A stretch of DNA of 64,000 nt from an uncultured Candidatus Saccharibacteria bacterium (GTDB taxonomy: Bacteria; Patescibacteriota; Minisyncoccia; UBA6257). Shown in pieces: positions 10,601 through 47,461 of this stretch. A model generated the notes under the pieces. That model ran no database searches. It saw only the letters and a program-made list of their open reading frames with translations, and was not told the origin of the DNA. Numbering within the stretch: the first letter of the stretch is position 1; the number at the start of each line of letters is the position of its first letter. The stretch spans positions 160,001 to 224,000 of the forward strand of contig CAYZJA010000001.1 in the NCBI GenBank assembly GCA_964479005.1. Reading direction: 5' to 3'. Made by a program: the position numbers and the translations under genes.

Positions 10601-11244
10601 ACCCTGACACTTCTCATATTAAAGACAGTACTGTGAATGCTAATAATGGCACAAAAAAAGCAGCAAATGAACCGGTAGAAGCAGACGCTAAAATAGCCAA
10701 AGGGCAAAGTTTTGACGGAGCGGATGATTATGTGGATGCTCCTATTCCCAACCTAATTGATTACACTTATGAAGCGTGGTTTTATACTCGAAGTTTTGTT
10801 AATGGTAATGCTAATGATGGTACGGGCACTTATTTTATAGATAGACAAATTGGAGGTAACTCATTGGTTTCTCTAAAGGCTATTAGTGGAAATTTCGCAC
10901 ATCAGTATAGAGATAATGCTGGTGCAGGTCTTGGAGCAGTTCAAGGTGGCGCAATTCAGCTAGATACTTGGCAGCATGTTGTTTGGGGAAGGGAGGAAGG
11001 AATAGGGTTTTTCATTTATGTTGATACTATCAAAAATAGCGTTGCTGATACTCTTGGTGCTTTGACTCCCGACTCACCAAGAATTGGAGCACATCAAGGT
11101 TTAGTAATTTTTTTAAACGGTCTCATCGATGAAATTCGTATATCCAATATTGCACGTTCTTCAACCTGGATTTCTACAGAATACAATAATCAGTCATCAC
11201 CTAGTTCTTTTTACACAGTGGGAAACCAAGAAGAGAGTTACTAA
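7621..11244 (+). CDS. large secreted surface protein: signal peptide, three tandem ~125-aa beta-rich repeats, Cys-rich module, C-terminal LamG/concanavalin-A-like lectin domain
   Basis: ATG 7621 gives a signal peptide 'MSFNRSIKISVVFLVIFAWVLNSFPLKA' (the track start 7579 is upstream of the promoter -10). Three repeats 'FW(I)xSSVNT..GDLQFExDD..DLASP....PALT..TW..V.L...R..V.S.G...T.D.GA' occur at aa ~175/320/450. A Cys-rich segment carries 'QFHADPT'. The C-terminus 'GQSFDGADDYVDAP...YEAWFYTRSF...IDEIRISN' matches the LamG_3 pattern. Confidence 0.75.
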   Translation: MSFNRSIKISVVFLVIFAWVLNSFPLKAADGSGTNVVDPITATASATDKTFDFTFTAAETMDSGEISIAVPSGWSAPQDISTTVGYTTAASTGMTADVLTALDTHTGWSTGSNIAISADGADYQEGSYSISADIAVGAQAGEKWYFNEPGAKDFGSATKMIFWIKSSVNTNAGDLQFEVDDSADLASPEETVNIPALTVDTWTEVTISLGAARSSVLSYGIKYTVDIGAATVKIDDIRAMFDDADATTSWTQSGSGKITISSDAAIKKQGTASIKAAFLPQAKPLDKYFWSSATPRSFGSYARVSFWIYSSKATEADDLKWENDNSTGLASPEDTIGLPALAATTWTYLQVTLGATRTSVLSHGIHQVIDLGAHNEYVDAMAVQVNAAESTTNWTKTSPMVLSTDTTVYHENAASLKNIVAVTAGTGDEWWYNLGAADDWSSYTNVGFWIRSTVNTSGGNLQFEYDDNTDLASPIASLDIGALTANTWSYQNLTLTDTRTTINSYGFKYTTDVGAVIINADDILLGPGEPSFSGSGPWDINVRILALANTETITVTYGDNAGSGGGVTVTSATGDATFTTKSRISDSGTLTNIASSPVVTVGTALVVDNVQLNGQAAIDLIENTTKSVSATANISHPTDCNLITNVTSKIYRSGVTNNKDCTSDNNDCYSVASCSKTSCVETEAVYTCTINMQFHADPTDEDAEYWRAWIEATDGSLTNSNYSPVDAPDVNTLRALNTTATINYGTLDPGQNSTSTNQQITVTNTGNDAIDIRLYGIDMTWNGNTIDTANQEYSLSPFTYGSGNYLKEAPSYDDVDANLPKPTESPSNSSDIFYWGLGIPSPMPSGGPYQGTNTFEAINDQGVLGWYNPSWGYRVKVTVLASEVDADLTDYPVYVDLSNLPAGFHTNVNQTDARDIRVTKYNGTLEVPREVVFYDSATDTGELHFKGNVDDGTNTDFYIYYGNGGASDYAVDAEFGAENVWNANAKMVQHMKDDPDTSHIKDSTVNANNGTKKAANEPVEADAKIAKGQSFDGADDYVDAPIPNLIDYTYEAWFYTRSFVNGNANDGTGTYFIDRQIGGNSLVSLKAISGNFAHQYRDNAGAGLGAVQGGAIQLDTWQHVVWGREEGIGFFIYVDTIKNSVADTLGALTPDSPRIGAHQGLVIFLNGLIDEIRISNIARSSTWISTEYNNQSSPSSFYTVGNQEESY

Positions 11245-11337
11245 AGTGAAAGTGCTTGTCCATAAATATTGACATTGTTTTCTAAATAAATTATATGTTA
11301 TAATAAATAAACAAAACTATGACTAATTCCATATCTT

Positions 11338-11391
<54 letters not shown>

Positions 11392-11394
11392 ATC

Positions 11395-11421
11395 GCGGTT
11401 TTTCAGAAAAACCCTTTTTTT
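11395..11421 (+). terminator. rho-independent terminator-like hairpin
   Basis: GGTTTTT-cag-AAAAACC stem followed by a CTTTTTTT run. Confidence 0.55.
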
Positions 11422-11506
11422 GTTGGTTCAGTCTATAATACTTAACTTAGGCTGGACTTTTTTATTTGTTAATAAAAATTAAATTTTAAAAATAAAATTA
11501 AAAAAT

Positions 11507-13243
11507 ATGCCTAAAATAATAAAAAAATCTATTCCTTGGTTTTTAATTGTAAGTTTAACTCTTGCAACAGTATTAACTTTTAACTTTATGAGTTCAAGAG
11601 TTGAAGCTGATTCAGCAGATACTTCAGTAAGTGTAGGTAATACCACACCAACTTTTAATAGTGGTTATGAGCCTCATGAAGACATAGCTTCAGATGGTAC
11701 GACTCCGACAAATGTTGGTAGTGATGTAACTTTTAAAGCAACAGCAACTGACGCTAATAGTGATGATTGGAAGCTTTTGATTTGCGACAGTCCTGGTACA
11801 ACCGGTGTGACTTGTACTGGTACTGTAATTTGTAATACTGCTGTTGCAGTAAGTTCTGATACAGAAGCTACTTGTAGTTATACTGCGCTTATAGGTGATA
11901 ATCAATCAATTGATTGGTATGGTTATGCTTGTGATTCAACAGGATGTTCTGACGAGGATCACAAAGTAGATGCTTCTGGTCCTCCATTTAAAGTTAATCA
12001 TAGTCCAGCATTTACTGTTTATGCAGATGATGGACCTAAAGGACCTAACGCTACTATTACCTGGACTACCACAGCTTCTGACACAGATGATGATACAGAG
12101 CAAGATACGATAAGCTTATATGTTTGTAAAGCAGATGATTTTACCGGTTCTGCGTGCGGAGTTGGAGGACAGTGGTGTTCATCACTTAACGATGCTGATG
12201 GTGATCCAACTTGTAACGAAACCACTCCGAGACCAGATGGTGATTATGCTGCTTATGGTTATATAGTTGATAGCCATAGTTTAGTTTCTGTAGGTACAGC
12301 AGAAGGAACTGATTCTTCACCAACAGTTACTAATAGCACTCCTTCAATTACTGATTCTTCAATTAATTTATTAGACACAGATGGAAGCGGCAATTTAGAA
12401 TTAATTGATGAGCAAGCTGAAACTGCTAATTTTACAGTTACTTTTATAGTAAATGATGAGAATAGTTGTGAAAATATTACGTCCGGAGATGAAATATCTT
12501 CAGCTTTTATTAATGTAAGGATGTCAGAAAAACCAACAGGCGACTGTGATATTACTGGTGAATATAATGCTAATGATTGTTATCCAGATGATTATACTGA
12601 ATGGAATCCTGTTTGCGCTGCTTCTTCAACAGTTGATGCTTGTAATGGTGATACTGATACTACTGTTGGTTGGGCATGTACTTTCCCTTTACAATATCAT
12701 GCTGATCCAACAGTTACTGGAACTCCAAAGGCAGCTTATACCTGGATAGCAGCTGTTCAAGCTGAAGATGATCAGGCAGCTAATACGGGTCTAATAGATT
12801 CTTCAACTGGCAGCAATGATATTGATAAATTTATGTCTTATAATTTAACTACTGCCTCAATTGCTTATGGTACAGTAGCTCCTGATGATTACAGCTTAGA
12901 GCAAACCACAATTATTGAGGCTACTGGTAATGTTGGATTAGATGAGAATCTTTTGGGGAGTCTGTTATGTAATGATTATGAAACTTGTGCAGGTGATGAT
13001 GATATCGCAATTGCTGAACAACATTATAATCTAAGCCAAGGCGCAGGCTGGGCAGCTGGAACAGAACTTACTGATAGTTTGGTTGAATCTGAGCTTAATT
13101 GTACGAAGACTACTATTACTGGAACTCCAGAAACAAAAAGTACTTATTGGTATTTGCATATACCTCTAGGTCAAGGTGTAGATAGTTATACTGGTGAGAA
13201 TACTATTGAAGGCAAGGTTGATAATGAAACTTACGAAACATAA
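11507..13243 (+). CDS. secreted Thr/Asp/Cys-rich surface protein, paralogous in part to the Cys-rich module of the upstream large protein
   Basis: Signal peptide 'MPKIIKKSIPWFLIVSLTLATVLTFNFMSSRVEA'. It shares the 'C..NDCY...C....C...CTF..QYHADPT...AAYTWIAA' module with 7621..11244. Confidence 0.7.
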   Translation: MPKIIKKSIPWFLIVSLTLATVLTFNFMSSRVEADSADTSVSVGNTTPTFNSGYEPHEDIASDGTTPTNVGSDVTFKATATDANSDDWKLLICDSPGTTGVTCTGTVICNTAVAVSSDTEATCSYTALIGDNQSIDWYGYACDSTGCSDEDHKVDASGPPFKVNHSPAFTVYADDGPKGPNATITWTTTASDTDDDTEQDTISLYVCKADDFTGSACGVGGQWCSSLNDADGDPTCNETTPRPDGDYAAYGYIVDSHSLVSVGTAEGTDSSPTVTNSTPSITDSSINLLDTDGSGNLELIDEQAETANFTVTFIVNDENSCENITSGDEISSAFINVRMSEKPTGDCDITGEYNANDCYPDDYTEWNPVCAASSTVDACNGDTDTTVGWACTFPLQYHADPTVTGTPKAAYTWIAAVQAEDDQAANTGLIDSSTGSNDIDKFMSYNLTTASIAYGTVAPDDYSLEQTTIIEATGNVGLDENLLGSLLCNDYETCAGDDDIAIAEQHYNLSQGAGWAAGTELTDSLVESELNCTKTTITGTPETKSTYWYLHIPLGQGVDSYTGENTIEGKVDNETYET

Positions 13244-37331: not shown

Positions 37332-37859
37332 ATGGATAAAAAGAAAACAGTTAAAAAAACAACATCTGTAAAGAAAGAGACAAAGAAAACGGTGAAGAAA
37401 GAAGCGAAGAGAAAAGTAAAAAAAGAAGTCAAAAAAGCTGTAACAAAAAAGGAAGTCAAGAAGGAAATCAAGAAAAAGTATATTGAAGCTGTTGGTAGAA
37501 GAAAAGAATCTGTAGCTCGTGTAAGGCTTATCAAAGACAAGCCAGGTTTTATTATTAATGAAAAAACAATGGAAGAATATTTTTCTTTGCGGGATTATCA
37601 CAAAAAGATATTAGATCCTTTCAAAACAACTAATTTAGAAAATAGTTTTTTTGTTTCAATAAAAGTAAAAGGAGGTGGAATTACCGGTCAAGCTGAAGCT
37701 ATTAGATTAGGAATTAGCCGTTGTTTAATAAAAATTGATAAGAAATTAAAACCAGCATTAAGAAAAGCGGGATTTTTGACACGTGATGCTCGTATTGTAG
37801 AAAGAAAGAAATATGGTTTGAAAAAGGCTAGAAAGGCTGCACAGTGGTCAAAAAGATAA
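37332..37859 (+). CDS. rpsI: 30S ribosomal protein S9 with ~45-aa Lys-rich N-terminal extension
   Basis: 'GRRKESVARVRL...GGGITGQAEAIRLGISRCL...ARKAAQWSKR', preceded by a KKxxKK-repeat tail. Confidence 0.85.
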   Translation: MDKKKTVKKTTSVKKETKKTVKKEAKRKVKKEVKKAVTKKEVKKEIKKKYIEAVGRRKESVARVRLIKDKPGFIINEKTMEEYFSLRDYHKKILDPFKTTNLENSFFVSIKVKGGGITGQAEAIRLGISRCLIKIDKKLKPALRKAGFLTRDARIVERKKYGLKKARKAAQWSKR

Positions 37860-37894
37860 ATTAACTCTTTACCTTTCTTATTAATTCTTATTAA

Positions 37895-37926
37895 AAAGCA
37901 TCTCTCAATAAGGTGCTTTGTTTCTT
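37895..37926 (+). terminator. terminator-like hairpin after rpsI
   Basis: AAAGCA-(13 nt)-TGCTTT followed by GTTTCTT. Confidence 0.4.
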
Positions 37927-37953
37927 GACAAGATGAGATATATTTGTTATATT
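37925..37953 (+). promoter_or_regulatory. sigma-70-like promoter TTGACA-17-TATATT
   Basis: A consensus -35 and a near-consensus -10, ~135 nt upstream of the first small tandem gene. Confidence 0.4.
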
Positions 37954-38088
37954 AAATACAATAGAACAGTTACTGATATAACCATCGGAAGGTAATAAAA
38001 TTAAATAAATCTTATTTAAAGAAAAACGGGTTTCTACAATTCAAGAAAGTGAGTTAAATGTGAATAATTCTCCTAATCGGGTATAATT

Positions 38089-38316
38089 ATGAATAACAAA
38101 CCCATCATAACTAAGGAGAAAGCACAAAAACTTTCTAAGCTTTTCGATAATCCTACTAATTTTAAACAGGCTTGTATTAAGGTTTTATTAGAAGTACCTG
38201 ATGAAAAACTGGATTTTTACAAAGGGAACTTGACTTTTTCAAAAAATGGTGGTACAATTTTGACGAAAATAGAACAATTTTGCGAACAGAAACAATTTAA
38301 GAGTTTTAAGAATTAA
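38089..38316 (+). CDS. small hypothetical protein (75 aa), tandem paralog 1
   Basis: 'MNNKPIITKEKAQKLSKLFDNPTNFKQACIKVLLEVPDEKLDFYKGNLTFSKNGG' is ~70 percent identical to the next gene. Confidence 0.55.
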   Translation: MNNKPIITKEKAQKLSKLFDNPTNFKQACIKVLLEVPDEKLDFYKGNLTFSKNGGTILTKIEQFCEQKQFKSFKN

Positions 38317-38401
38317 ACAATTGAATCATACAATTTAATTAGTTTGCCGAGAAGGTGACGCTAACCGAAGAGGGGCGTCTAGACTATCTCTAAGTTTATT
38401 A

Positions 38402-38426
38402 GGGGTCGTCTGGACACCCCTTTTTT
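38402..38426 (+). terminator. rho-independent terminator (copy 1 of duplicated 3' element)
   Basis: GGGGTCGTC..GACACCCC hairpin plus a TTTTTT run. An upstream conserved ~80-nt segment is shared with copy 2. Confidence 0.6.
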
Positions 38427-38428
38427 CA

Positions 38429-38653
38429 ATGAATAACAAATTTATTATAAACAAAAGAAAATATCAGGAACTTTCTAAACTCTTTGATAATCCTACTAAT
38501 TTTAAGGAAGCTTGTATAAAACTTCTGTTAGAAATACCAGATAAAAAATTAGATTTTTACAAAGGGAACTTGACTTTTTCAAAAAACGGTGGCATGATTC
38601 TAATGAAAATAGAAGAATTATGTGGGTCAAAACACTTTAATTTTAAAGATTGA
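38429..38653 (+). CDS. small hypothetical protein (74 aa), tandem paralog 2
   Basis: 'MNNKFIINKRKYQELSKLFDNPTNFKEACIKLLLEIPDKKLDFYKGNLTFSKNGG'. Confidence 0.55.
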   Translation: MNNKFIINKRKYQELSKLFDNPTNFKEACIKLLLEIPDKKLDFYKGNLTFSKNGGMILMKIEELCGSKHFNFKD

Positions 38654-38713
38654 ACCTACATAGATTAAATCATACAATTTAATTAGTTTGCCGAGAAGGT
38701 GACGCTAACCGAA

Positions 38714-38771
38714 GAGGGGCGTCTGAACTATCTCTAAGTTTATTAGGGGTCGTCTGGACGCCCCTTTTTTT
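38714..38771 (+). terminator. rho-independent terminator (copy 2), long stem GGGGCGTC...GACGCCCC + T-run
   Basis: 'gaggggcgtctgaac..ggggtcgtctggacgcccctttttttt'. Confidence 0.6.
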
Positions 38772-38938
38772 ATTGGAAATTATTGGGAAAAAATATCAAC
38801 TGGATATTGAGAAAAAAATAGTACTTTATAGCACCTTGAAAAATAGCACCTTGAAATAAAAATTTAGTGAAATGAGAGATAAGAAAAAGATAAAAGTATA
38901 AGAAAGAAATGTATTAGAAAGAAAGGAGGTGAAACAAA

Positions 38939-40138
38939 ATGACAAAACGCAAATGGACTAAAGAAGATGACGAATATCTTATCCAACATAGTCCGAAACA
39001 ACGGGGAGATTATGGGAAGTTGGCTATCAAACTTGATAGAACAGTAGAAGCAGTGAGGTATAGGTGTAGAAATCTAAAATTGGAAAATGTCCAAAAGAAT
39101 AGTCAGGCACAGAGAACAGATGTTCCATTAGAAGATAGGATTTACGAATTGCTTTCACATTCCAAAAAACATTCTATTGAGGAGCTAAGTAATACATTTG
39201 ATATTTGTGTAGGAAAGGTTAAAGAAGCATTAGGTGTATTACAGAGCAGACGGATTTTAATAGACGCAATAGATGACAAAATTGTTTTAGGGAATACGAT
39301 TAAACCACCAAAAGCCACTCCAATTCCGATGAAGATTTATCATAATAGGTGGATTAAGTTTGGAGTAATCAGTGATACTCATTTGAACTCCAAATATCAA
39401 AGATTGGATATTTTAAACCACGCTTATAAAATCTTTCAGAAAGAAGGAGTGAAGAATGTTCTACACGCTGGGAATATTATAGATGGTTATGGTAGATTAA
39501 ATCAGTTTGATGTATTTAACATCGGGACAGAAGACCAAATCAACTATTGTATTGAAACCTATCCTTGTAAGCAAGGGATTACTACTCACTTCATTACTGC
39601 TGATGATCACGAGGGATGGATTGTAAGGAGAGAACACATTAACATCGGAGAATTACTTGAACTCAAAGCTAACAAAATGGGTAGAAAAGATTTGAAACAT
39701 TTAGGATATATTGAAAGTGATGTGTTAGTTAAAGTTGGAAGCAAACCTACAAGAATTAGAGTATTCCATCCTGGCGGAGGCACAGCATATTCTCTTTCTT
39801 ATAAACCTCAGAAGATTGTTGAGTCCTTACAGGGTGGAGAAAAACCTGATATATTATTAGTCGGACATTTTCATAAACTCGGACATTTTGAATGGCGGAA
39901 TGTGGAAGTGTTATTGACTGGTTGTATAGAAGACCAAACTCCATTTATGAGAAAGAAACATATTGCTGCTCATCTTGGTTTCTATATTGTGAAAGCCCAT
40001 ATTGCTCCTGACGGTTCTGTCAATAGATTCATTCCAGAAAAGATTAGCTATTACGATAGGAAATATTATACCAGCAGAGCTTGGAAGAAAACTCCTACCA
40101 GTTTTGAAAAACCTATTGAATGGTTTTACAAGTGGTAA
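38939..40138 (+). CDS. Myb/SANT-like HTH + winged-helix fused to calcineurin-like metallophosphoesterase (phage-type)
   Basis: N-terminal 'KWTKEDDEYLIQH...GDYGKLAIKLDRTVEAVRYRC'. Phosphoesterase motifs 'GVISDTHL', 'HAGNIIDG', 'LLVGHFHK'. Consensus SD 'AAGGAGGTG' upstream. Confidence 0.6.
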   Translation: MTKRKWTKEDDEYLIQHSPKQRGDYGKLAIKLDRTVEAVRYRCRNLKLENVQKNSQAQRTDVPLEDRIYELLSHSKKHSIEELSNTFDICVGKVKEALGVLQSRRILIDAIDDKIVLGNTIKPPKATPIPMKIYHNRWIKFGVISDTHLNSKYQRLDILNHAYKIFQKEGVKNVLHAGNIIDGYGRLNQFDVFNIGTEDQINYCIETYPCKQGITTHFITADDHEGWIVRREHINIGELLELKANKMGRKDLKHLGYIESDVLVKVGSKPTRIRVFHPGGGTAYSLSYKPQKIVESLQGGEKPDILLVGHFHKLGHFEWRNVEVLLTGCIEDQTPFMRKKHIAAHLGFYIVKAHIAPDGSVNRFIPEKISYYDRKYYTSRAWKKTPTSFEKPIEWFYKW

Positions 40139-40208
40139 GTATTCGCTCTTAAAACAAAACGGGGTGTCTTAAACACAGACACCCCTAATCTCACAGGAGG
40201 TGATTTTG

Positions 40209-40781
40209 ATGAAAATCTTAATCGATTTGGACGGAACAGTATTTGAGACTTACGACACTTTAGAAGAAAAGTTTGTCCAGAAATTTAATCGCAAAATGAA
40301 CTGGCAGGCGCTGAAAAGCGGCAAGAATCATTACTGGCAAACAGATGGGGGTAAGTGGATAGTCAAGCAATTCAAAGACCCAAACTTTTATTACAATTTA
40401 GAAACTTATCCTGATGCTCCCAAAGTGTTAAGGCAACTTGCCCGAAAACATACAATCATATATTGTACCGCGAGGAGGTTTGGATTAGAAAATGCCACCT
40501 CCTATTCGCTTGGTTATAGAAAACTGCCATTCGGGAAGGTATATTGTATTGGCAGGAGACACATTGCGGGGGTTAAAAAGAGAATTGCCTTAGATGAAAA
40601 AATTGACCTTGCTATTGATGATGAATCAAAAGTGGTAGAAAAACTTTCTGAAGTCTGTCAAGTTTTGATATTTACTCAGAATTATAATAAAGGTTGTAAA
40701 TTCGGTAAGAGAGTAAAATCTTGGAAGGAGGTGCGTCATGAATTACAAGCAAAGAAAAGAAATAATAGAACAAGCAAATAA
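40209..40781 (+). CDS. 5'(3')-deoxyribonucleotidase-like HAD protein (NT5C family)
   Basis: 'MKILIDLDGTVFETYD' DxDGT at the N-terminus, ~190 aa, with SD 'CAGGAGGTG'. ATG 40209 is preferred over the track start 40200. Confidence 0.5.
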   Translation: MKILIDLDGTVFETYDTLEEKFVQKFNRKMNWQALKSGKNHYWQTDGGKWIVKQFKDPNFYYNLETYPDAPKVLRQLARKHTIIYCTARRFGLENATSYSLGYRKLPFGKVYCIGRRHIAGVKKRIALDEKIDLAIDDESKVVEKLSEVCQVLIFTQNYNKGCKFGKRVKSWKEVRHELQAKKRNNRTSK

Positions 40782-41073
40782 AAGACGTCAATCCTTAATG
40801 CTTAATAAAGGAAAAGAATATTCAAAGGGTAATGCCGATATTAATTATAACTTTAAAGAAGTTGCTGATAGATTAGGCACTCGTCTTGCTGGAACTCCTG
40901 AATATACTTGTTTAGTTTATTTATTCAAACAGATTTTATCAATAGAGAAATGGGCAAGAGATGGAAAGTTAAGTTCAGGGGAAACAATTTTTTCAAGATT
41001 AGATGATGCCAGAAACTACATGGATATTTTAGAAAGTCTGATAAGAGAAAAATCCGATGTACAAGGAAGGTGA
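40738..41073 (+). CDS. hypothetical protein (111 aa)
   Basis: An ORF with SD 'GGAAGGAGGTG' that overlaps the upstream gene. Confidence 0.45.
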   Translation: MNYKQRKEIIEQANKRRQSLMLNKGKEYSKGNADINYNFKEVADRLGTRLAGTPEYTCLVYLFKQILSIEKWARDGKLSSGETIFSRLDDARNYMDILESLIREKSDVQGR

Positions 41074-41077
41074 TGGT

Positions 41078-41224
41078 ATGGAAATTCAGAATGTTTACTG
41101 TTTGATTAAGATTACTTGTGTTGTGATTATTGTAGTAGGATTTTTCGCAATTGTTCAATTACATCTTAAAAGAGAAAAGCAAAGGATACGGGATTATTAT
41201 AAAAGAGGAGGTGATAAGCGATGA
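41078..41224 (+). CDS. small membrane protein (48 aa), holin-like size
   Basis: Manual ORF 'MEIQNVYCLIKITCVVIIVVGFFAIVQLHLKREKQRIRDYYKRGGDKR' with one TM and a charged C-terminus. ATGA overlap with the next gene. Confidence 0.35.
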   Translation: MEIQNVYCLIKITCVVIIVVGFFAIVQLHLKREKQRIRDYYKRGGDKR

Positions 41225-42303
41225 AAAAACTACTCGTAGTATTGATTTGTTTGTTTCTATTAGTTCCAACTGTAATTTCTGCACCAGTTGAAAGATTAAG
41301 TGTAGGAGATTTTACTCGTGCAGTAACGGCTCAGATAGTCTGTAATGTTGATGTGTATAGACGGGATTTAACCTGGTATAAGATTGAGGATGGTCAGGTG
41401 ATCCCTGAATTCAAAGATTTAGATGAAGATGACTGGGCATATCAATGGTTAAAGAAAGGCTGGTTCGTGGTATATGGCGAATGGAATACAGAACCTCGCA
41501 AAGGTAAGATAATGGGTTCTGGTGAAGTATTATATTCCTGGTTATTACCTATGGGGATTAACTTAGAAGGTAAACCTGCTGCAACTTATGTAGGCACAAA
41601 TGCCCATGTGGTAGATGTATTTATGTTAGAAGCCAGTAGGGGTTCAAGAGATAAACCATTAGACCTATATGCCGAGAAGGACACGATGAAGACAATGAAT
41701 ATGCTTAGAACGACTTATAAAGAAGAGGCTAAACCAATAGCCCAGTATTACTTTGATATAGATAACAGTTATATCACTGTAAAGACCGAAGCAGACCAAA
41801 GATTTAGAACTAAAGTTAACATCGTATTGTTTGACATAGCATTAGATTTTGCCTTATTGGAAATGGAAAATGTTTTAGGTCTGCCTTATGTGAGTTTTAG
41901 AGGCACTCCTATACAGGTTGGCGAAACGATTAAAATCTGTGGAGCACCATTAGGATTTGCTTTTAGTAGAGACGAAGGACGAGTAAGTCAAGTTCACTTA
42001 AATCTCGGAACTGATGGAGTGGAAGATTATATTGTATGGGATAACCAAGTGCGTATGGATATTGCTGCTGCACCAGGAAGTTCGGGTAGTGCGATATTTG
42101 ATAAAGATGGCTATATGATTGCCCAATTACACGGAATAATGGTTCACAACGGCAACTATATTCAAGGCGGACAATTAGCAGTAGACCAAGAAGATATAAT
42201 TCGTTTTCTGGTGTTAAATGGTTTTTCGTGGATAGTTCAAAATCCTTATGGAATTTGGGCTAACGCACCATATAATACAGTCCGACCAAAAGTAGGAGAA
42301 TAG
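41221..42303 (+). CDS. secreted trypsin-like (S1/Trypsin_2) serine protease
   Basis: Signal peptide 'MKKLLVVLICLFLLVPTVISAP'. Catalytic His 'GTNAHVV', Asp 'DFALLEME' and Ser 'APGSSGSAIFD'. SD 'GAGGAGGTG'. Confidence 0.6.
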   Translation: MKKLLVVLICLFLLVPTVISAPVERLSVGDFTRAVTAQIVCNVDVYRRDLTWYKIEDGQVIPEFKDLDEDDWAYQWLKKGWFVVYGEWNTEPRKGKIMGSGEVLYSWLLPMGINLEGKPAATYVGTNAHVVDVFMLEASRGSRDKPLDLYAEKDTMKTMNMLRTTYKEEAKPIAQYYFDIDNSYITVKTEADQRFRTKVNIVLFDIALDFALLEMENVLGLPYVSFRGTPIQVGETIKICGAPLGFAFSRDEGRVSQVHLNLGTDGVEDYIVWDNQVRMDIAAAPGSSGSAIFDKDGYMIAQLHGIMVHNGNYIQGGQLAVDQEDIIRFLVLNGFSWIVQNPYGIWANAPYNTVRPKVGE

Positions 42304-42380
42304 AAATGAGAATTAACGCAGAGGGGGCTTACCTTGATGGTTTCTAAAAGTCCCCCTCCAGCTGTATGGAGGTGATTAAG

Positions 42381-42530
42381 ATGAGGTGGTTATTACTCAC
42401 ATTTGCAATATCTACTATCATATCTTTTGTAGGATTTGTGAATTGTAAAATGGAAAAGGAGAAAGATTGGTTTATTGCGTTATTGGTTTCTGCAACATTA
42501 GTTGTATTGATGTTTGTTGAATTATCTTAG
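42381..42530 (+). CDS. small two-TM membrane protein (49 aa)
   Basis: Manual ORF 'MRWLLLTFAISTIISFVGFVNCKMEKEKDWFIALLVSATLVVLMFVELS' with SD 'GGAGGTG'. Confidence 0.35.
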   Translation: MRWLLLTFAISTIISFVGFVNCKMEKEKDWFIALLVSATLVVLMFVELS

Positions 42531-42545
42531 GGGGAGGTGATAGAG

Positions 42546-42893
42546 ATGAAGAAACGAAGAAAAAAGCAAAAAGTTAAGAGAGAAGTTTTAAAGAAAATTG
42601 TTAGAGAGAAAAAGGTTTGTTATTTCTGTGGAACTACCGAGAATATAACCGAGCATCACATAATTTTTAAGTGTTTCATTAAAGGCGGAGAGTTACCAAA
42701 TAACAAGAAAGACATTTGTGATAAGTGCCACAAGCAGTTTCATAAATTAGCAAAACCTGTTGTGGATTTACTCTTATCGGTAATTCAAGGATTACAACCG
42801 AAACCAACTCGGAAAATAGGATTCATAAGAACGAACAACAAAGGAGGCGAAAGAAATGAGAAACATAAAAAGATGTCTATTGTTCTATCCTGA
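42546..42893 (+). CDS. HNH endonuclease
   Basis: 'CYFCGTTENITEHHII...NKKDICDKCHKQFH' is an HNH/CxxC..CxxH pattern, with SD 'GGGGGAGGTG'. Confidence 0.6.
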   Translation: MKKRRKKQKVKREVLKKIVREKKVCYFCGTTENITEHHIIFKCFIKGGELPNNKKDICDKCHKQFHKLAKPVVDLLLSVIQGLQPKPTRKIGFIRTNNKGGERNEKHKKMSIVLS

Positions 42894-43080
42894 CATACTG
42901 CCAGCTTTACCTTGTTCTTATCCCGATGAGGATAAATGCGGTAGATATATGAAAATCTATCGTAGAAGTAAGAACAGAAAACAGGCAATAGTTCTTTGCT
43001 CACATCGGGTTAAAGAATTAGGTAGAAAGACTTGTGTCAGAGAACAAATGAAACTCAAAGATTCTACAATTTACAGGTAG
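42856..43080 (+). CDS. small Cys-rich protein, paralog A (74 aa)
   Basis: 'C...P.LPCSYPDEDKCGRY...CSHRVKELGRKTC' shares a motif with 43436..43630. Confidence 0.45.
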   Translation: MRNIKRCLLFYPDILPALPCSYPDEDKCGRYMKIYRRSKNRKQAIVLCSHRVKELGRKTCVREQMKLKDSTIYR

Positions 43081-43113
43081 AATTCTCAAAGCCATTAGAA
43101 GGAGGGAGAAGAA

Positions 43114-43275
43114 ATGAAAACAAGAATAGTAGTAATTGTAGAAAATGAAATATCTTATTCAGTAAATGATTTTACCAGAATGGAACTCAAAGTTTTCAAG
43201 AAAAGGATTAAGGAACAGATAGAAGAGAAATTGTTAGCAGGTTGGAAAGTGATAAAAATAAAAATTAGGAGGTAA
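43114..43275 (+). CDS. small hypothetical protein (53 aa)
   Basis: Manual ORF 'MKTRIVVIVENEISYSVNDFTRMELKVFKKRIKEQIEEKLLAGWKVIKIKIRR' with SD 'AGGAGGGAG'. Confidence 0.35.
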   Translation: MKTRIVVIVENEISYSVNDFTRMELKVFKKRIKEQIEEKLLAGWKVIKIKIRR

Positions 43276-43281
43276 GAAGTA

Positions 43282-43422
43282 ATGAGAATAACAAGAGAAG
43301 AGCTCGTAAAACAAGGATGGTCATTTATGAGAAGAATAAGCAGAAATTGCGAAATCTGGACAAGAGAAGAAGGAATGATCCTATGGAATAGAGAAACATT
43401 AAAGGTTTATGTGATATGTTAG
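43282..43422 (+). CDS. small hypothetical protein (46 aa)
   Basis: Manual ORF 'MRITREELVKQGWSFMRRISRNCEIWTREEGMILWNRETLKVYVIC' with SD 'TAGGAGGTAA'. Confidence 0.3.
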   Translation: MRITREELVKQGWSFMRRISRNCEIWTREEGMILWNRETLKVYVIC

Positions 43423-43435
43423 GAGGTAAAAAGAA

Positions 43436-43630
43436 ATGAGAGATATTTATCGTTGTCCGATTATGTGGAAACTTTTAAAGAAAGCAACTCCTTGTGCGTA
43501 TCCTGATGTTGAAAAATGTGGAAGAGTTGGTGGCTCTTTCCTTTGTAAATATCGGATAGCTGAAATAGGTAAAAAGAATTGCCTTAAAGAAGTTGCTGAG
43601 TTGAAAGATTTTGCTAAAACTCTCAAATAA
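43436..43630 (+). CDS. small Cys-rich protein, paralog B (64 aa)
   Basis: 'C..PCAYPDVEKCGRV..C......GKKNC' with SD 'TAGGAGGTAAA'. Followed by the hairpin GGCAAGAG..CTCTTGCC at 43639-43662. Confidence 0.45.
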   Translation: MRDIYRCPIMWKLLKKATPCAYPDVEKCGRVGGSFLCKYRIAEIGKKNCLKEVAELKDFAKTLK

Positions 43631-43794
43631 AAGCCAATGGCAAGAGGGCTATATCTCTTGCCACTCTCTCGGAGGGTATTTGTAGATGTTGTTCAAAATC
43701 ACATAAGTCCCATTTTTCTACAAGTATCTTCCGAGAGGGTAATTTCCTCAAACTAATAAAGGTCTTTAAAAAATAATCATAAATAAATATAAAT

Positions 43795-43995
43795 ATGAAA
43801 TTTTGGAAACCTCTCACAAAATACAGATATAGCAAAGAGAGAAATGAAGTTAAATATCATACTGATTTTATGCTTGATAAAGAAGAAGGATTTGAATTAA
43901 GATTTGCGGACTTTATGTTTAAGGAAAAAGTTCCAAAAGATAAGGTTTGGAAATGTCATCTTGAGCTTGCTGTGGAGGAATTTAATGAAAAATAA
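43795..43995 (+). CDS. hypothetical protein (66 aa)
   Basis: An ORF with no recognisable motif and no SD. Confidence 0.3.
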   Translation: MKFWKPLTKYRYSKERNEVKYHTDFMLDKEEGFELRFADFMFKEKVPKDKVWKCHLELAVEEFNEK

Positions 43996-44103
43996 AACAA
44001 CCAAAAAACATTGTGCGTTACATTATAAATCTAAATAAACTTAGTTATATTATTTTAATAGATTAAAACAATTTTTAAATTTTACGAATTAGAATATGTT
44101 CCA

Positions 44104-44556
44104 ATGTTCCAAATATCCGAAGAAAAATTAAAAAAGATAAGAACGGTAGAAATTGCCATCAATAAGAATTTATTTTTAATTTGTATTGTTATTTCAGTAA
44201 TAACAATGAGTATTTTAGGAATAGAATTTTTTAGCCATAGAATCTTTCCTTCTTCTAAAATAAGTTTTTTTTACATTGGGATTTTGTTGATTTATTCTAT
44301 TCATAAGGAAATGTTGAGATGGGTAGGAGCAAAAAGAATAGAAAGGCAAGGTGAGTGGTTTGTTTATTTTTGGATCGGATTTACTATCATCTTATATGTT
44401 ATTAATTTCTCTACAAAAGGTTATTTTAATTATCCTTTAGGAAATACATCATCGGAATCGCTTAATCAAATTGCCGTTACTACTTTAGAAATCTGCGGCA
44501 TTTTTATTGTTTCTAGATTATCTAAGATGGCAAAGATTATTTTGGAAAAAAGATAA
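44104..44556 (+). CDS. hypothetical multi-TM membrane protein
   Basis: About four hydrophobic helices and no SD. Confidence 0.45.
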   Translation: MFQISEEKLKKIRTVEIAINKNLFLICIVISVITMSILGIEFFSHRIFPSSKISFFYIGILLIYSIHKEMLRWVGAKRIERQGEWFVYFWIGFTIILYVINFSTKGYFNYPLGNTSSESLNQIAVTTLEICGIFIVSRLSKMAKIILEKR

Positions 44557-44624
44557 TAATAATATTCTAAGATAGAACATTTTTTGTATTTTGAAAATTA
44601 AAAAGAGAGGAGGTGGACAATTTG

Positions 44625-45258
44625 ATGAAATTATTAAGAGTTTTTTTTGTCAGCTTTTGGGAAAGGAATTATAACTTTGGTTCCAATCTTAATTATTTTC
44701 TGGTTACTTGGACTTTTTTTGGGAGAAAATATGATAACTATGCGAGATATCATATTTTCTATTTTAAGGGGATTACTTCCTAGGGGGATGGTAGTGCAAG
44801 AGTGGATGATTGGTTTAGGATTGATTTTAACTATTCTGTTTGTCGGTTTAATTTCTTCATCAATTTTCAAAAGAATCTACGCCTGTACAGGTAGATTAAT
44901 AGGTAAATTAATCCAAAAATCATTAACAGGGAAAATAAAAGAACAATATCAGGATCAGGGTATGGTGATATTTGAGTTTAGGGAAGGAATATGGATTCCA
45001 GGAATTATAGTTGGATATATAGCAGGAAGTGAAAAACTTAAGGGTGGAAAATTTTTGAGAATCTTTATTCCCAATGTACCCATACCTTTAACTGGATTTT
45101 CACCTATTTTTGTGCAAGAAAGCAAAGTGATACATATCGATCTTCCGGTTGATGAGGTACTTAATATGTATATTTCAGCTGGGATATTAGGCCCTAAAAG
45201 ACTCCCAGAAATAGTCAGGGAATTAGAGAAAAGAGAAATAATATCAAAAATAGACTAG
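44625..45258 (+). CDS. DUF502/COG2928-like membrane protein; ATG 44625 is out of frame with the main ORF (TTG 44647) across a T8 tract
   Basis: A strong SD 'GAGGAGGTG' sits 8 nt before ATG 44625. Removing one T from TTTTTTTT (44641-44648) gives 'MKLLRVFLSAFGKGIITLVPILIIFWLL', which resembles (from memory) the DUF502 N-terminus 'MK.LR..FL.GLL.LLPL.IT'. Confidence 0.5.
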
Positions 45259-45272
45259 TAGAGACTTTTAAA

Positions 45273-45311
45273 GGCGGTCTCAATATTTATCTGAGAACCG
45301 CCCTTTTTTTT
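45273..45311 (+). terminator. rho-independent terminator
   Basis: GGCGGTCTC-(11 nt)-GAGAACCGCC followed by CTTTTTTTT. Confidence 0.7.
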
Positions 45312-45346
45312 GGTATAAGAAAACTCTAATCTATACCAGGGATGGA

Positions 45347-45375
45347 TTGACTAACAAGATTATTAGTGGTATAAT
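45347..45375 (+). promoter_or_regulatory. sigma-70 promoter TTGACT-17-TGgTATAAT
   Basis: Consensus spacing with an extended -10, located 58 nt upstream of ATG 45433. Confidence 0.5.
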
Positions 45376-45432
45376 TGGATTACTCTACTTAGTACTCTTG
45401 AAAATTTTAAAAAAAGGAGGAAAAAGAAAAAG

Positions 45433-45675
45433 ATGAAAAGGATATTATTTGAAAAGAACGCTAAAAGAATTACAAAGGCAGTAGCAGAATTTGTTGCAGA
45501 AGAATTTAAGCCTTTGAGGGAAGGGGATAAGATAAAAAAGATAGGAGAGCTGTTAAAGGGTTTTGAAGACACAAAAAAAATAAATGGAAATTTTTTTGTT
45601 GTTCTTCGATTACCTGAAGGGACAGAAGCAGCAATTGACTTACAAGGAAGACTTTATGACTTAAATGAAATTTGA
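45433..45675 (+). CDS. hypothetical protein (80 aa)
   Basis: SD 'AAAGGAGGAAAAAG'. No motif recognised. Confidence 0.45.
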   Translation: MKRILFEKNAKRITKAVAEFVAEEFKPLREGDKIKKIGELLKGFEDTKKINGNFFVVLRLPEGTEAAIDLQGRLYDLNEI

Positions 45676-45703
45676 TTTTAGGCAATAGGAGGCGAAAAAC
45701 ATA

Positions 45704-45787
45704 ATGACAGTAACTACATTTTCAGAATTCTTGCCCTGGTTTGTAATAATGATCGGAGTGTATTTTTTATCTCTTTGGATAAAATAA
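45704..45787 (+). CDS. small membrane peptide (27 aa)
   Basis: Manual ORF 'MTVTTFSEFLPWFVIMIGVYFLSLWIK' with SD 'TAGGAGGCG'. Confidence 0.3.
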   Translation: MTVTTFSEFLPWFVIMIGVYFLSLWIK

Positions 45788-45793
45788 GACAAC

Positions 45794-45839
45794 AAAACCG
45801 CTTAGAAGGTTGCATAAGTGTAACTGGACAAGCGGTTTT
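45794..45839 (+). terminator. long hairpin AAAACCGCTT...AAGCGGTTTT (10-bp stem, 26-nt loop)
   Basis: An inverted repeat immediately after the small-peptide gene. It marks the right edge of the SD-rich island. Confidence 0.4.
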
Positions 45840-45889
45840 AAATTGCTATATTCGCTTTTTTGTGATATAATTTTAGAACAAAAATACTT

Positions 45890-47461
45890 ATGGATATTCT
45901 CAAAAACATATACAAAGAATTTATTAAAAGGCGGGTTATTGTTATTATCGGCGCTATTATTTTATTAGTAATTTATTTGTTCTTTTTTAGAAATAACAAA
46001 GAACCAGAATATAACTTAGCAATAGCTGAGAGAGGATCTATAAGAGAAGAGGTTTCAGTTACAGGTAAAATAGAAGCTATTGAAAACATAGATTTGTCTT
46101 TTAGGGCTACAGGAAATGTATCCCAAGTTTTAATTGAAACTGGAAGTGAGGTTAAAAAAGGTCAAGTTTTAGCTAGTTTAGAAAATAATGATTTATGGGC
46201 TCAATTAAGACAAGCTAAAGCTAATTTAGAGGCTGAAAAAGCTAAATTAGATGAATTAGAAAAAGGAACCAGACAAGAAACAATTAATATTAAACAGACA
46301 GAGCTTTCTAAAGCCCAACAAGACTTAGATAATTATTATTTGGATATCTTAGATGTCTTAAATGATTCTTATGCTAAAGCTGAAGAAGCTATCAAAATAA
46401 AAATCAAGGATATCTTTTTAGGAGCAGAAGCGGCAAATAGCTATATATTGAATTTTGATACTTGCGTGTCTAATGAGATATCTTCAGATGTTGGATATTC
46501 ACGATTAGTATCTGAGAGGGAGCTTAAAGAATGGAAAAATCAATTATCCATAATTAACATTAATTCTTCCAAAGAGGAATTAAATTTGGCAATAAAGAAT
46601 GCAAAAGAATATACGGTTTCTTTTAAAGATTTTTTTGGAAAATTAAATAATATTTTATTAGCAGATTGTTCTTATAGTAATCCTAACCTTGATGTTTATA
46701 GAATTGATACAAATACTGGTAGAAATCTTATTATTACCGCGATAACTAATATTAATAATTTAGAACAGAGTGTTGCCTCTCAAAAATTATTAGTTGAAAA
46801 AACACAAAACGAATTAGATCTTTTGTTAGCCGGTTCTACAAAAGAACAAATTATTACCCAACAAGCAAAAGTAGAATATGCTGAAGCTGATATAGCTAAT
46901 CGTTATGCGCTAATTGAAAAAACCATTATTCGCGCCCCAATAGATGGTTTTATAGCCAAAAAAGAAATAAAAAAAGGTGAGGTAGTATTGGCAAATGTTT
47001 CAGTAGTTAGTCTTATGGCAGAAAAAGGATTACAGATTAAAACATATGTTCCTGAGGTTGACGTTTCTAAAGTTAAGGTAGGGGATAGAGTTTTGATAAC
47101 TTTAGACGCTTTTCCTCGAAAAGAATTTTTTGGAGAAATAATACATATTGATTCTGCTGAGACGATTGTTGATGGTGTAGTTTATTATAAAGTAAAAAGT
47201 ACAATTGATACTAAAGATACTAATATTAAATCAGGGATGACTGCTGATATTATTATTATCACCGATTCAAAAGAAGATGCTTTGATTATTCCAAGAAGAG
47301 CTGTGATAGAAAAAGAGGGAAAGAGCATGGTAAGAATTCCTGTTAATGGGGATTTTCAAGAAATTGAAGTTGAAACAGGCTTAGTAGGCTCTGATGGAAA
47401 TATTGAAATCATATCTGGATTAAAAGAAGATGATAAAGTAATTACTTTTATCAAAAAATGA
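45890..47461 (+). CDS. HlyD/MacA-family efflux periplasmic adaptor
   Basis: N-terminal TM, long coiled-coil 'LRQAKANLEAEKAKLDELEKG' and beta-barrel/lipoyl-like segments. Confidence 0.75.
   Translation: MDILKNIYKEFIKRRVIVIIGAIILLVIYLFFFRNNKEPEYNLAIAERGSIREEVSVTGKIEAIENIDLSFRATGNVSQVLIETGSEVKKGQVLASLENNDLWAQLRQAKANLEAEKAKLDELEKGTRQETINIKQTELSKAQQDLDNYYLDILDVLNDSYAKAEEAIKIKIKDIFLGAEAANSYILNFDTCVSNEISSDVGYSRLVSERELKEWKNQLSIININSSKEELNLAIKNAKEYTVSFKDFFGKLNNILLADCSYSNPNLDVYRIDTNTGRNLIITAITNINNLEQSVASQKLLVEKTQNELDLLLAGSTKEQIITQQAKVEYAEADIANRYALIEKTIIRAPIDGFIAKKEIKKGEVVLANVSVVSLMAEKGLQIKTYVPEVDVSKVKVGDRVLITLDAFPRKEFFGEIIHIDSAETIVDGVVYYKVKSTIDTKDTNIKSGMTADIIIITDSKEDALIIPRRAVIEKEGKSMVRIPVNGDFQEIEVETGLVGSDGNIEIISGLKEDDKVITFIKK

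Follow-up and report, generated by a model that had tools for sequence, protein, structure and literature searches.

Why would a short non-coding element be better conserved than the protein gene directly in front of it? The question arises from a 64,000-nt stretch of DNA (hereafter the window) of an uncultured Candidatus Saccharibacteria bacterium (contig CAYZJA010000001.1, positions 160,001 to 224,000), in which two tandem units, each made up of a gene for a protein of 74-75 aa and a structured 3' element of about 110 nt, lie between a ribosomal-protein operon and a phage-derived island. A preliminary description of the sequence had left three roles open for the element: a cis-regulatory RNA, a small RNA (sRNA), or a recombination or attachment sequence. 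We give about an even chance to an answer of the first kind, namely that each unit would be a phage-derived cassette in which the small-protein gene is followed by a conditional intrinsic terminator, i.e. a transcription attenuator. On the sequence evidence, the cassette is an undescribed small-protein family together with an RNA motif from phages of Candidate Phyla Radiation (CPR) bacteria.

The tandem duplication of units of about 340 bp that had been described before is borne out by a repeat search and by pairwise alignment. The units lie head to tail at a spacing of 340/344 bp, and two direct repeats make them up: one of 212 nt (38089-38300 and 38429-38640; 78% identity, spacing 340), which corresponds to the two open reading frames (ORFs), and one of 112 nt (38320-38431 and 38664-38775; 95% identity, spacing 344). 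Both ORFs of about 75 aa are present as described, fit the consensus quoted for them and encode proteins that are 76% identical to each other. ORF1 (38089-38316, + strand) encodes the 75-aa protein P0001 and ORF2 (38429-38653, + strand) its 74-aa paralogue P0002; neither is preceded by a Shine-Dalgarno sequence. Differences between the two number 14/9/27 at codon positions 1, 2 and 3, the only indel is of 3 nt and in frame, and the ratio of nonsynonymous to synonymous substitution rates (dN/dS) is about 0.1, ranging from 0.08 (NG86) to 0.13 (YN00) at a dS of 1.1-1.7. Shuffles of ORF1 are free of stop codons in only 0.07% of cases, and copies given equally many random substitutions in only 3.4%. 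ORF1 and ORF2 are genuine, selected genes and old paralogues. That conservation is higher in the 3' element than in the coding part, as stated earlier, proved correct and indeed understated, with 95% identity for the element versus 64% at third codon positions. In the window there are exactly two occurrences of a 34-mer from the core of the element, against 0 expected by chance, and no third copy, complete or partial, was found there by pattern, repeat or two covariance-model searches.

Is this conservation peculiar to the window? A word-indexed protein search returned only the query protein and its paralogue. Two further clusters, P0003 (67 aa) and P0004 (60 aa), emerged when 1.84 billion cluster representatives were searched exhaustively with an HMMER profile, and a profile search of a 5.8-billion set contributed nothing beyond P0005 and near-identical cluster members; in all, only three lineages of the family were found among about 15 billion proteins. 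These distant homologues are 34-39% identical to the window's proteins and are encoded on short phage-like contigs of two lineages, one (L085, L091 and L092) with genes for an exonuclease, a Zn-finger protein, a replication-initiation protein and a 3D-domain hydrolase, the other (L086 and L087) with genes for a transglycosylase-like protein and an RNase_H_2 exonuclease. Each carries a single unit, located between genes in the middle of the contig, and in every homologue a homologous element lies directly 3' of the small gene, across three different gene contexts. Two longer related phage contigs, L093 and L095, share the exonuclease, homologues of which are numerous, and lack both the small gene and the element. 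The element was never found without the small gene, either in a degenerate-pattern search of JGI metagenomes or in the covariance-model searches of the window; the JGI search gave one true match (L091, next to the small gene) and three chance matches in high-GC coding sequence. Exact and degenerate DNA patterns of the element had no match in IMG/VR, searches of IMG/VR with neighbouring phage proteins yielded no relatives, and blastn and tblastn searches of GenBank phages gave no matches or matches at chance level. Since gene and element always occur together, they form one accessory module. In L093 and L095 the RNase_H_2 exonuclease gene lies 55-610 nt from the contig end, which suggests a physical genome end or an assembly break near the place that the module occupies in L086.

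Across the lineages, the coding DNA is 52-54% identical and its third codon positions 28-40%, while the element as a whole is 62-69% identical and its P1-P2 part (see below) 68-73%. The preliminary description had held that relatives with a single unit and a non-conserved 3' region would speak against it; relatives do carry a single unit, but their 3' region is conserved. Saturated synonymous sites next to near-identical non-coding elements are the core of our finding. In unit 1, the + strand element begins with a 5' extension (38320-38345), an AU-rich hairpin (UUGAAU/AUUUAA) whose loop contains a TACAAT hexamer and which is common to both units and partly present in L086 (TTAAACAATTGAAT). It is followed by P1 (38346-38356), a 3-bp hairpin GCC-GAGAA-GGU with a G-A-N-R-A pentaloop that is paired in all four distinct element sequences, the closing G-U pair becoming G-C among them, and by P2 (38357-38379), the putative antiterminator, with an outer stem of 6 bp (GACGCU/GGCGUC), a bulge of 2 nt (1-2 nt across lineages), an inner stem of 2 bp (CC/GG) and the pentaloop GAAGA. 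The loops observed in P1 and P2, i.e. GAGAA, GAAGA, GACAA and GACGA, all conform to G-A-N-R-A. The predicted terminator 1 (38367-38426) consists of a basal helix GGGGCGUC/GACACCCC with one C.A mismatch, a distal part P3 (38380-38412) and a U-run (38421-38426), 2 nt after which lies the ATG of ORF2. Element 2, on the same strand, repeats this layout with a 5' extension that again folds into an AU-rich hairpin with TACAAT (38664-38689), P1 and P2 (38690-38700 and 38701-38723) identical to those of element 1, and a predicted terminator (38711-38771) with a perfect basal helix GGGGCGUC/GACGCCCC and a U-run at 38765-38771. Of about 112 positions, 5 distinguish the two elements, and none of these falls in the first 38 columns of the alignment. 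The segment GCCGAGAAGGTGAC is identical between the window and L086, whose element reads AAGCCGAGAAGGTGACATTGCTGACGAAGGGTGTCCGGACTAACTAC...GTAGGTAGTTTAGGCGCCCTTTTTT. At the gathering threshold, Rfam finds only one tRNA-Lys in the whole window and no match to the element; a permissive Rfam search of 37850-38950 gave unrelated families at E 0.07 or higher as its best sub-threshold matches, and a tRNA/tmRNA search returned nothing relevant.

Three sites elsewhere resemble P1. One of them, TGCCGAGAAGGACACG at 41670-41685, inside the ORF of a trypsin-like protease of the island, matches 14/16 bases of the P1 region and reaches 9.8 bits (E 2.9) with a P1-P2 covariance model; it is probably due to chance. 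The others are TTGCCAAAGGATGA in the leader upstream of the small gene of L086 (880-900) and TTGCCGAAGGTCGAGCGGC inside a 36-aa ORF downstream of the element in L085 (1950-1975); neither scores with the covariance model R2, and they may be extra binding sites or chance occurrences.

Does the element act as RNA or as DNA? On the + strand, elements 1 and 2 fold into small hairpins, a hairpin of about 26 bp and a run of six or seven U residues, with z-scores of -5.9 and -5.1. Folding energies for the four copies (two in the window, one each from the L085 and L086 lineages) are -44/-41.7/-43.4/-28.3 kcal/mol on the + strand and -30/-27.6/-27/-16.9 kcal/mol on the - strand, the weaker - strand folds being due to G-U pairs in the stems. 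The element is a feature of the + strand RNA and not of the DNA. RNAalifold predicts for the four sequences the 3-bp P1 and a long hairpin of 23 pairs followed by U5-U7, and seven of these pairs change on both sides yet stay paired. As expected of an intrinsic terminator, the G/C-rich basal helix GGGGCGUC/GAC(A/G)CCCC directly abuts U6 or U7, likewise in the predicted folds of L085 and L086; a simple terminator scanner did not flag the long hairpins, and the terminator assignment comes from the folds and the U-runs.

The terminator is, however, only one of two structures that the element can adopt. The 3' strand of P2 (GGGGCGUC) is also the 5' strand of the basal helix of the terminator, and P2 and the terminator are therefore mutually exclusive. 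For transcripts ending before the last strand of the terminator, the minimum free energy (MFE) structure is P1, P2 and P3 in succession in 4/4 copies, with 0-1 nt between the hairpins; in the full-length MFE structures of the same copies, the base of the terminator takes the place of P2. In the alignment of P1 and P2 all 40 cells are paired (100%), versus 35-55% when the partners are slid against each other. Two pairs of P2 show double changes, from G-C to A-U in the outer stem and from C-G to U-A in the inner stem, and alignment column 37 (C/U) covaries perfectly with its partner in P2 and not with its partner in the terminator, where unit 1 has its C.A mismatch. The three segments of the element (GACRY, RYGUC and GRCRCCC) are arranged in the standard layout of an attenuator, and the conserved upstream helix built on the 5' strand of the terminator, to its exclusion, is what an attenuator should have, at the low statistical power that three lineages allow.

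These data are consistent with the following mechanism. Transcription would start at a promoter past the rpsI terminator and pass through ORF1, and the emerging element would fold first into the three abutting hairpins P1, P2 and P3. The last segment (GGACRCCCC and the U-run) would then displace the 3' strand of P2 to form the terminator of about 26 bp with its G/C-rich base at the U-run, and transcription would stop. If P2 were held, the base of the terminator would be blocked, P3 would be left 9-10 nt from the U-run and polymerase would read on, into ORF2 after unit 1 and into the phage-like island after unit 2. The greater constraint on the element than on the gene would follow, because its nucleotides serve two structures. 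From the U-run to the start of the next ORF there are 2 nt in unit 1, 14 nt in L085 and 15 nt in L086, too little for a promoter, so that read-through would be needed in these three cases; ORF2, being under purifying selection, must be expressed. After unit 2 the distance is 167 nt. Given the C.A mismatch in terminator 1, the first gate might be the leakier one and the second, before the island, the tighter. What could hold P1 and P2? The most likely candidate would be the small protein encoded just upstream, since its gene stays linked to the element while the downstream genes vary, and we put it forward tentatively as the ligand. A host factor or a metabolite is a possible modulator in its place. 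Less likely than not is the complete picture of a self-contained antitermination cassette of CPR phages, in which a protein of about 60-75 aa from a new family, possibly an AbrB_C-like dimer, would bind two abutting boxB-like hairpins with G-A-N-R-A pentaloops in the 3' untranslated region of its own mRNA and lock P2, leaving the terminator incomplete and the downstream genes open to transcription. An AbrB_C-like oligomerisation segment could allow such a dimer to offer two RNA-binding surfaces to two similar hairpins, which would parallel the ANTAR proteins.

The proteins themselves are mildly basic, lysine-rich and hydrophilic, with 0-2 arginines. They have no match above threshold in Pfam or PHROGs, and Pfam even at E up to 10 gives only a weak match to AbrB_C. 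This resemblance to the C-terminal domain of AbrB is sub-threshold throughout: PDB 2mjg is matched at E 0.23, the best family member, P0003, reaches 14.1 bits (E 0.038) against PF18277 versus a gathering score of 22.8 bits, with 4/5 members giving no match, and hhalign aligns the small protein to AbrB_C at 36% identity over 33 columns with a probability of 4.4%. We regard it as a weak hint of an oligomerisation domain. Inside the ORFs, a stretch of 41 nt (38212-38252 and 38552-38592) encoding DFYKGNLTFSKNGG differs by one base between the units despite otherwise saturated synonymous sites, and points to a gene-conversion patch or a function at the nucleotide level; in unit 1 it contains a promoter-like TTGACT-17-TACAAT, and in L085 and L086 this DNA-level conservation is absent.

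Several observations weigh against an attenuator controlled by the small protein. The covariation score observed is reached by 27/500 shuffles and the number of compensated pairs by 115/500, which leaves the P2 helix resting on two compensatory pairs, and there are only three independent lineages with four distinct element sequences. Part of the 95-100% identity of the elements within the window may stem from gene conversion and not from selection; the 41-nt stretch of the ORFs is nearly identical as well. P1-P2 by itself has only a marginal advantage in stability over shuffled sequence (z -0.6 to -2.6) and the terminator is far more stable, so that the latter should win without a stabilising factor. 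As for that factor, no recognisable RNA-binding domain was found in the small protein with Pfam and PHROGs, its two AlphaFold (AF2) models are poor (predicted local distance difference test, pLDDT, about 55), a Foldseek search with the small-protein model gave no match, and the similarity to AbrB_C falls below every curated threshold. Finally, the 167-nt spacer after unit 2 holds a 14-nt direct repeat and weak promoter-like sites, and the island might own a promoter.

How do other explanations fare? Each unit could be a plain moron cassette, i.e. an accessory phage gene with a long constitutive terminator, whose extra conservation reflects shared ancestry, gene conversion or an mRNA-stabilising 3' end. 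This we consider unlikely. The cassette is sporadic among related phages, a gene followed by a terminator is the typical moron layout, the terminator is thermodynamically dominant and the 41-nt stretch suggests gene conversion in the window, but gene conversion cannot account for the conservation of P1-P2 across lineages in the face of 28-40% identity at third codon positions, the compensatory changes in P2 would go unexplained, and a constitutively strong terminator 2-15 nt before the next ORF would silence it, at odds with the purifying selection on ORF2. It is rather improbable that the element gives rise to a stable trans-acting sRNA, by processing of the 3' untranslated region or from an internal promoter with its -10 hexamer in the AU-rich loop, the purine-rich P1 and P2 serving as seed. 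Both units do have a promoter-like TTAAGA/TTGAAC-17-TACAAT ending 11 nt before P1, TATAAT lies 4 nt before P1 in L085 and AATAAT 2 nt before it in L086 (both read from the sequence), and bacterial sRNAs usually have a hairpin with a U-tail at the 3' end. The distance from hexamer to P1 nevertheless varies (2, 4 and 11 nt), the start would fall within P1 in L085 and L086, and such hexamers are common in DNA of 30% GC (12 promoter-like sites found versus 5.2 expected). No target could be proposed, and an sRNA would account neither for an element tied so strictly to the gene upstream nor for downstream ORFs that abut it; apart from the -10-like hexamers, the sRNA option of the preliminary description found no positive support.

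A further possibility keeps the attenuator and replaces its sensor by a small molecule, making it a riboswitch, or by a host factor. Competition between P2 and the terminator is a standard riboswitch expression platform and the small protein has no known RNA-binding domain; P1-P2, on the other hand, spans only 34 nt with helices of 3 bp and 6+2 bp and no obvious pocket, there is no Rfam match, and an element tied to its upstream gene while the downstream genes differ by lineage is the opposite of riboswitch logic. We hold this version to be improbable. Least of all do we expect a site acting at the DNA level, which would be either an operator of two direct repeats GCCGA-NNN-GG, 17-18 bp apart, for the small protein if it is AbrB-like, or an attachment or recombination site or an origin. 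Both repeats are present in all lineages, the small protein has its faint likeness to the AbrB C-terminal domain and the units border a foreign island on its left. Yet the second repeat of L086 has two substitutions that preserve pairing (CC/GG to CU/AG) and one base gained, which is unexpected for an operator half-site, the spacing of 17-18 bp is off helical phase, the likeness is to the oligomerisation domain of AbrB and not to its DNA-binding domain, and the strand asymmetry caused by G-U pairs points to RNA. No copy of the element lies at the other border of the island or elsewhere in the window, no integrase was found among the island ORFs scanned, and the module is internal in the phage-like contigs. 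The interpretation offered earlier is thus partly supported: its attachment-site option finds no support, for these last reasons, and its cis-regulatory option is the best supported, by conservation across lineages, a strand-specific covarying structure, the exclusive antiterminator and terminator, and the position 2-15 nt before the next ORF in 3/4 copies.

A number of other candidates were rejected. Leader-peptide attenuation does not fit a stop codon 5-36 nt from P1 at inconsistent spacing, or an ORF that encodes a conserved protein, and AGGUGA in P1 is not a Shine-Dalgarno sequence, as no start codon follows and AGGCGA in L085 keeps the hairpin pair. A diversity-generating retroelement (with variable and template repeats, VR/TR) was dismissed for the absence of a reverse transcriptase and because the differences are not adenine-specific; PyrR, TRAP or HutP sites for misfitting motifs and no Rfam match; and an antisense ORF (38335-38454) because it has no duplicate in unit 2. 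A type I toxin-antitoxin system is not indicated by a hydrophilic, lysine-rich protein and a poorly folding - strand (no PADLOC scan was made), nor a type III system by one structured RNA unit 3' of each gene, with no short-repeat array upstream of a toxin.

Where do the transcripts come from that would enter the proposed attenuator? Upstream of the units lies a ribosomal-protein operon (rpsM, rpsK, rpsD, rpoA, rplQ, rplM, rpsI) that ends in an intrinsic terminator of rpsI (37895-37919, + strand; terminator scan). It is followed by a predicted strong sigma-70-type promoter, TTGACA-17-TATATT (37925-37953, + strand), which agrees with the consensus at 11/12 positions and has TG before the -10 hexamer. 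The nearest relative found in an RpsI search of genome contigs, the Paceibacterota metagenome-assembled genome STB_31 (L004; 80% RpsI identity), has an equivalent hairpin after rpsI and, as read from its sequence, TTGACT-17-TATTAT at the equivalent position. The promoter at 37925-37953 is the likely source of the transcripts entering both units and is probably an ancestral host promoter. The ribosomal protein S9 encoded by rpsI (37332-37859) has a lysine-rich N-terminal extension of about 50 residues (MDKKKTVKKTTSVKKETKK...) that is only partly present in the closest relative (S9 of 153 aa).

L004 has neither the units nor the island. Its flanks are those of the window, with rpsI, the terminator and the TTGACT promoter to the left and, to the right, an 88-aa ORF and then HlyD/ABC/FtsX genes; between them (10385-11810) it has a pyrE-like gene and two small paralogous ORFs, where the window (37860-45900) has the two units and the island of about 6.3 kb. 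From this comparison, the segment from rpsI to HlyD/ABC/FtsX is a variable locus, and, given the same flanks with different content, units and island together are an insertion specific to the strain or species and placed behind a host promoter. By eye, an 80-aa ORF at 45433-45675 resembles the 88-aa ORF of L004, with a shared ...RLPEG... segment; if this likeness is real, the right border of the insertion would lie before 45433. The window is matched at 100% identity by three JGI contigs, of which L001 (551 kb; identical over 20 kb) differs only by a 276-bp deletion of 38382-38657 (junction L001 10293/10294, CTA microhomology). Lost with it are the 3' half of terminator 1 and the whole of ORF2, while ORF1, P1-P2 and a complete element 2 are left. 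Either a natural allele with a single gene or an artefact of assembly would explain the deletion; a simple repeat collapse is ruled out, as the junction lies outside the shared sequence.

The phage-derived island (38939-45258, + strand; Pfam and PHROG scans) is slightly GC-richer and encodes a Myb/HTH-metallophosphoesterase, an NT5C nucleotidase, a phrog_6802 protein, a secreted trypsin-like protease, an HNH protein, and small and membrane ORFs. A perfect 14-nt direct repeat (ATAGCACCTTGAAA; two copies at 15-nt spacing, 38828-38856) lies between element 2 and the gene for the 399-aa Myb/HTH-metallophosphoesterase; as both copies contain the -35-like hexamer TTGAAA, the island may have an operator or a promoter there. 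Among the small ORFs of the island, a cysteine-rich paralogous pair (42856-43080, 74 aa, and 43436-43630, 64 aa) shares the motif PC(S/A)YPD(E/V)(D/E)KCGR, and a similar ribosome-binding-site repeat precedes each of the two.

Almost nothing is known about gene regulation in CPR/Patescibacteria and their phages. If the attenuator reading is right, the unit would be a compact and portable gene-plus-RNA switch of about 340 bp, a minimal conditional-termination system and a possible part for synthetic biology; should the small protein indeed lock P2, it would represent a class of RNA-binding antiterminators of its own, with an RNA motif that is likewise new and no relation to the ANTAR, PRD and N families. 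A non-coding 3' element that is better conserved than the protein gene preceding it could serve as a search signature for similar cassettes.

How does the proposed cassette compare with known systems? Like the sites of ANTAR antitermination (EutV, NasR, AmiR), the element has two small adjacent hairpins with short stems and similar conserved loops just upstream of an intrinsic terminator, and its second hairpin shares nucleotides with the terminator, making the two mutually exclusive. ANTAR substrates consist of two 3-bp hairpins with hexanucleotide loops that have A at position 1 and G at position 4, joined by a linker of about 5-12 nt (PMC3369931), with both loops believed to be bound by a dimeric protein (PMC3369931; PMC8934654). 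The element, in contrast, has G-A-N-R-A pentaloops (G at position 1, A at positions 2 and 5), a 0-nt linker and a bipartite P2 (6+2 bp), and it follows a small phage gene and does not lie in the leader of a metabolic operon. No ANTAR domain was found with Pfam in the adjacent small proteins, and not all other window proteins were scanned for one. In BglG, SacY and LicT acting on the ribonucleic antiterminator (RAT), the hairpin stabilised by the protein extends into the 5' half of an intrinsic terminator (PMC3369931), as P2 overlaps the terminator's 5' strand here; RAT, however, is a single hairpin of about 29 nt, and its proteins are of about 280 aa, contain PRDs and are controlled by the phosphotransferase system (PTS), none of which is seen in the cassette.

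With the lambdoid N/nut system (boxB) the cassette would share a phage regulatory setting, a small basic protein encoded next to an RNA site, GNRA-like pentaloops and, as proposed here, read-through of terminators. Lambdoid boxB hairpins have loops of the G-A-N-R-A type and are known protein-recognition sites, GAAGA being the loop of lambda nutL. The loops of lambda boxB are reportedly GAAGA and GAAAA (Legault et al. 1998). GACAA, one of the loops of the element, is the boxB loop of P22 that is bound by the N peptide (PMC12550061). N differs in acting processively through Nus factors from a distant nut site, with no structural competition with a given terminator; the stem of boxB has 5 bp and is preceded by boxA, whereas the stems of the element have 2-3 bp and no boxA was seen, and N has an arginine-rich motif, whereas the small proteins are rich in lysine and have no sequence similarity to it. 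Prophage morons resemble the units as small accessory genes with their own terminator, sporadic in related phages and with a strong promoter in the integrated state, but moron terminators are not conserved beyond the hairpin and have no alternative structure, whereas here the non-coding part is the best conserved. The likeness of the small protein to AbrB_C (PF18277 / PDB 2mjg) is confined to a local motif, L-x-[LF]-x-x-G-x-L-x-[LF]-S-K-x-G...I-[IL]-x-x-I, over 33 residues, and the protein lacks the N-terminal swapped-hairpin domain of AbrB. The cassette is not a member of the ANTAR, RAT/PRD or N/nut families. In working principle it would come closest to the ANTAR dual-hairpin antiterminators and, more loosely, to RAT/BglG; if our reading is right, it uses the known logic of a protein-stabilised antiterminator competing with a terminator, but does so with an RNA motif and a small protein that are both new.

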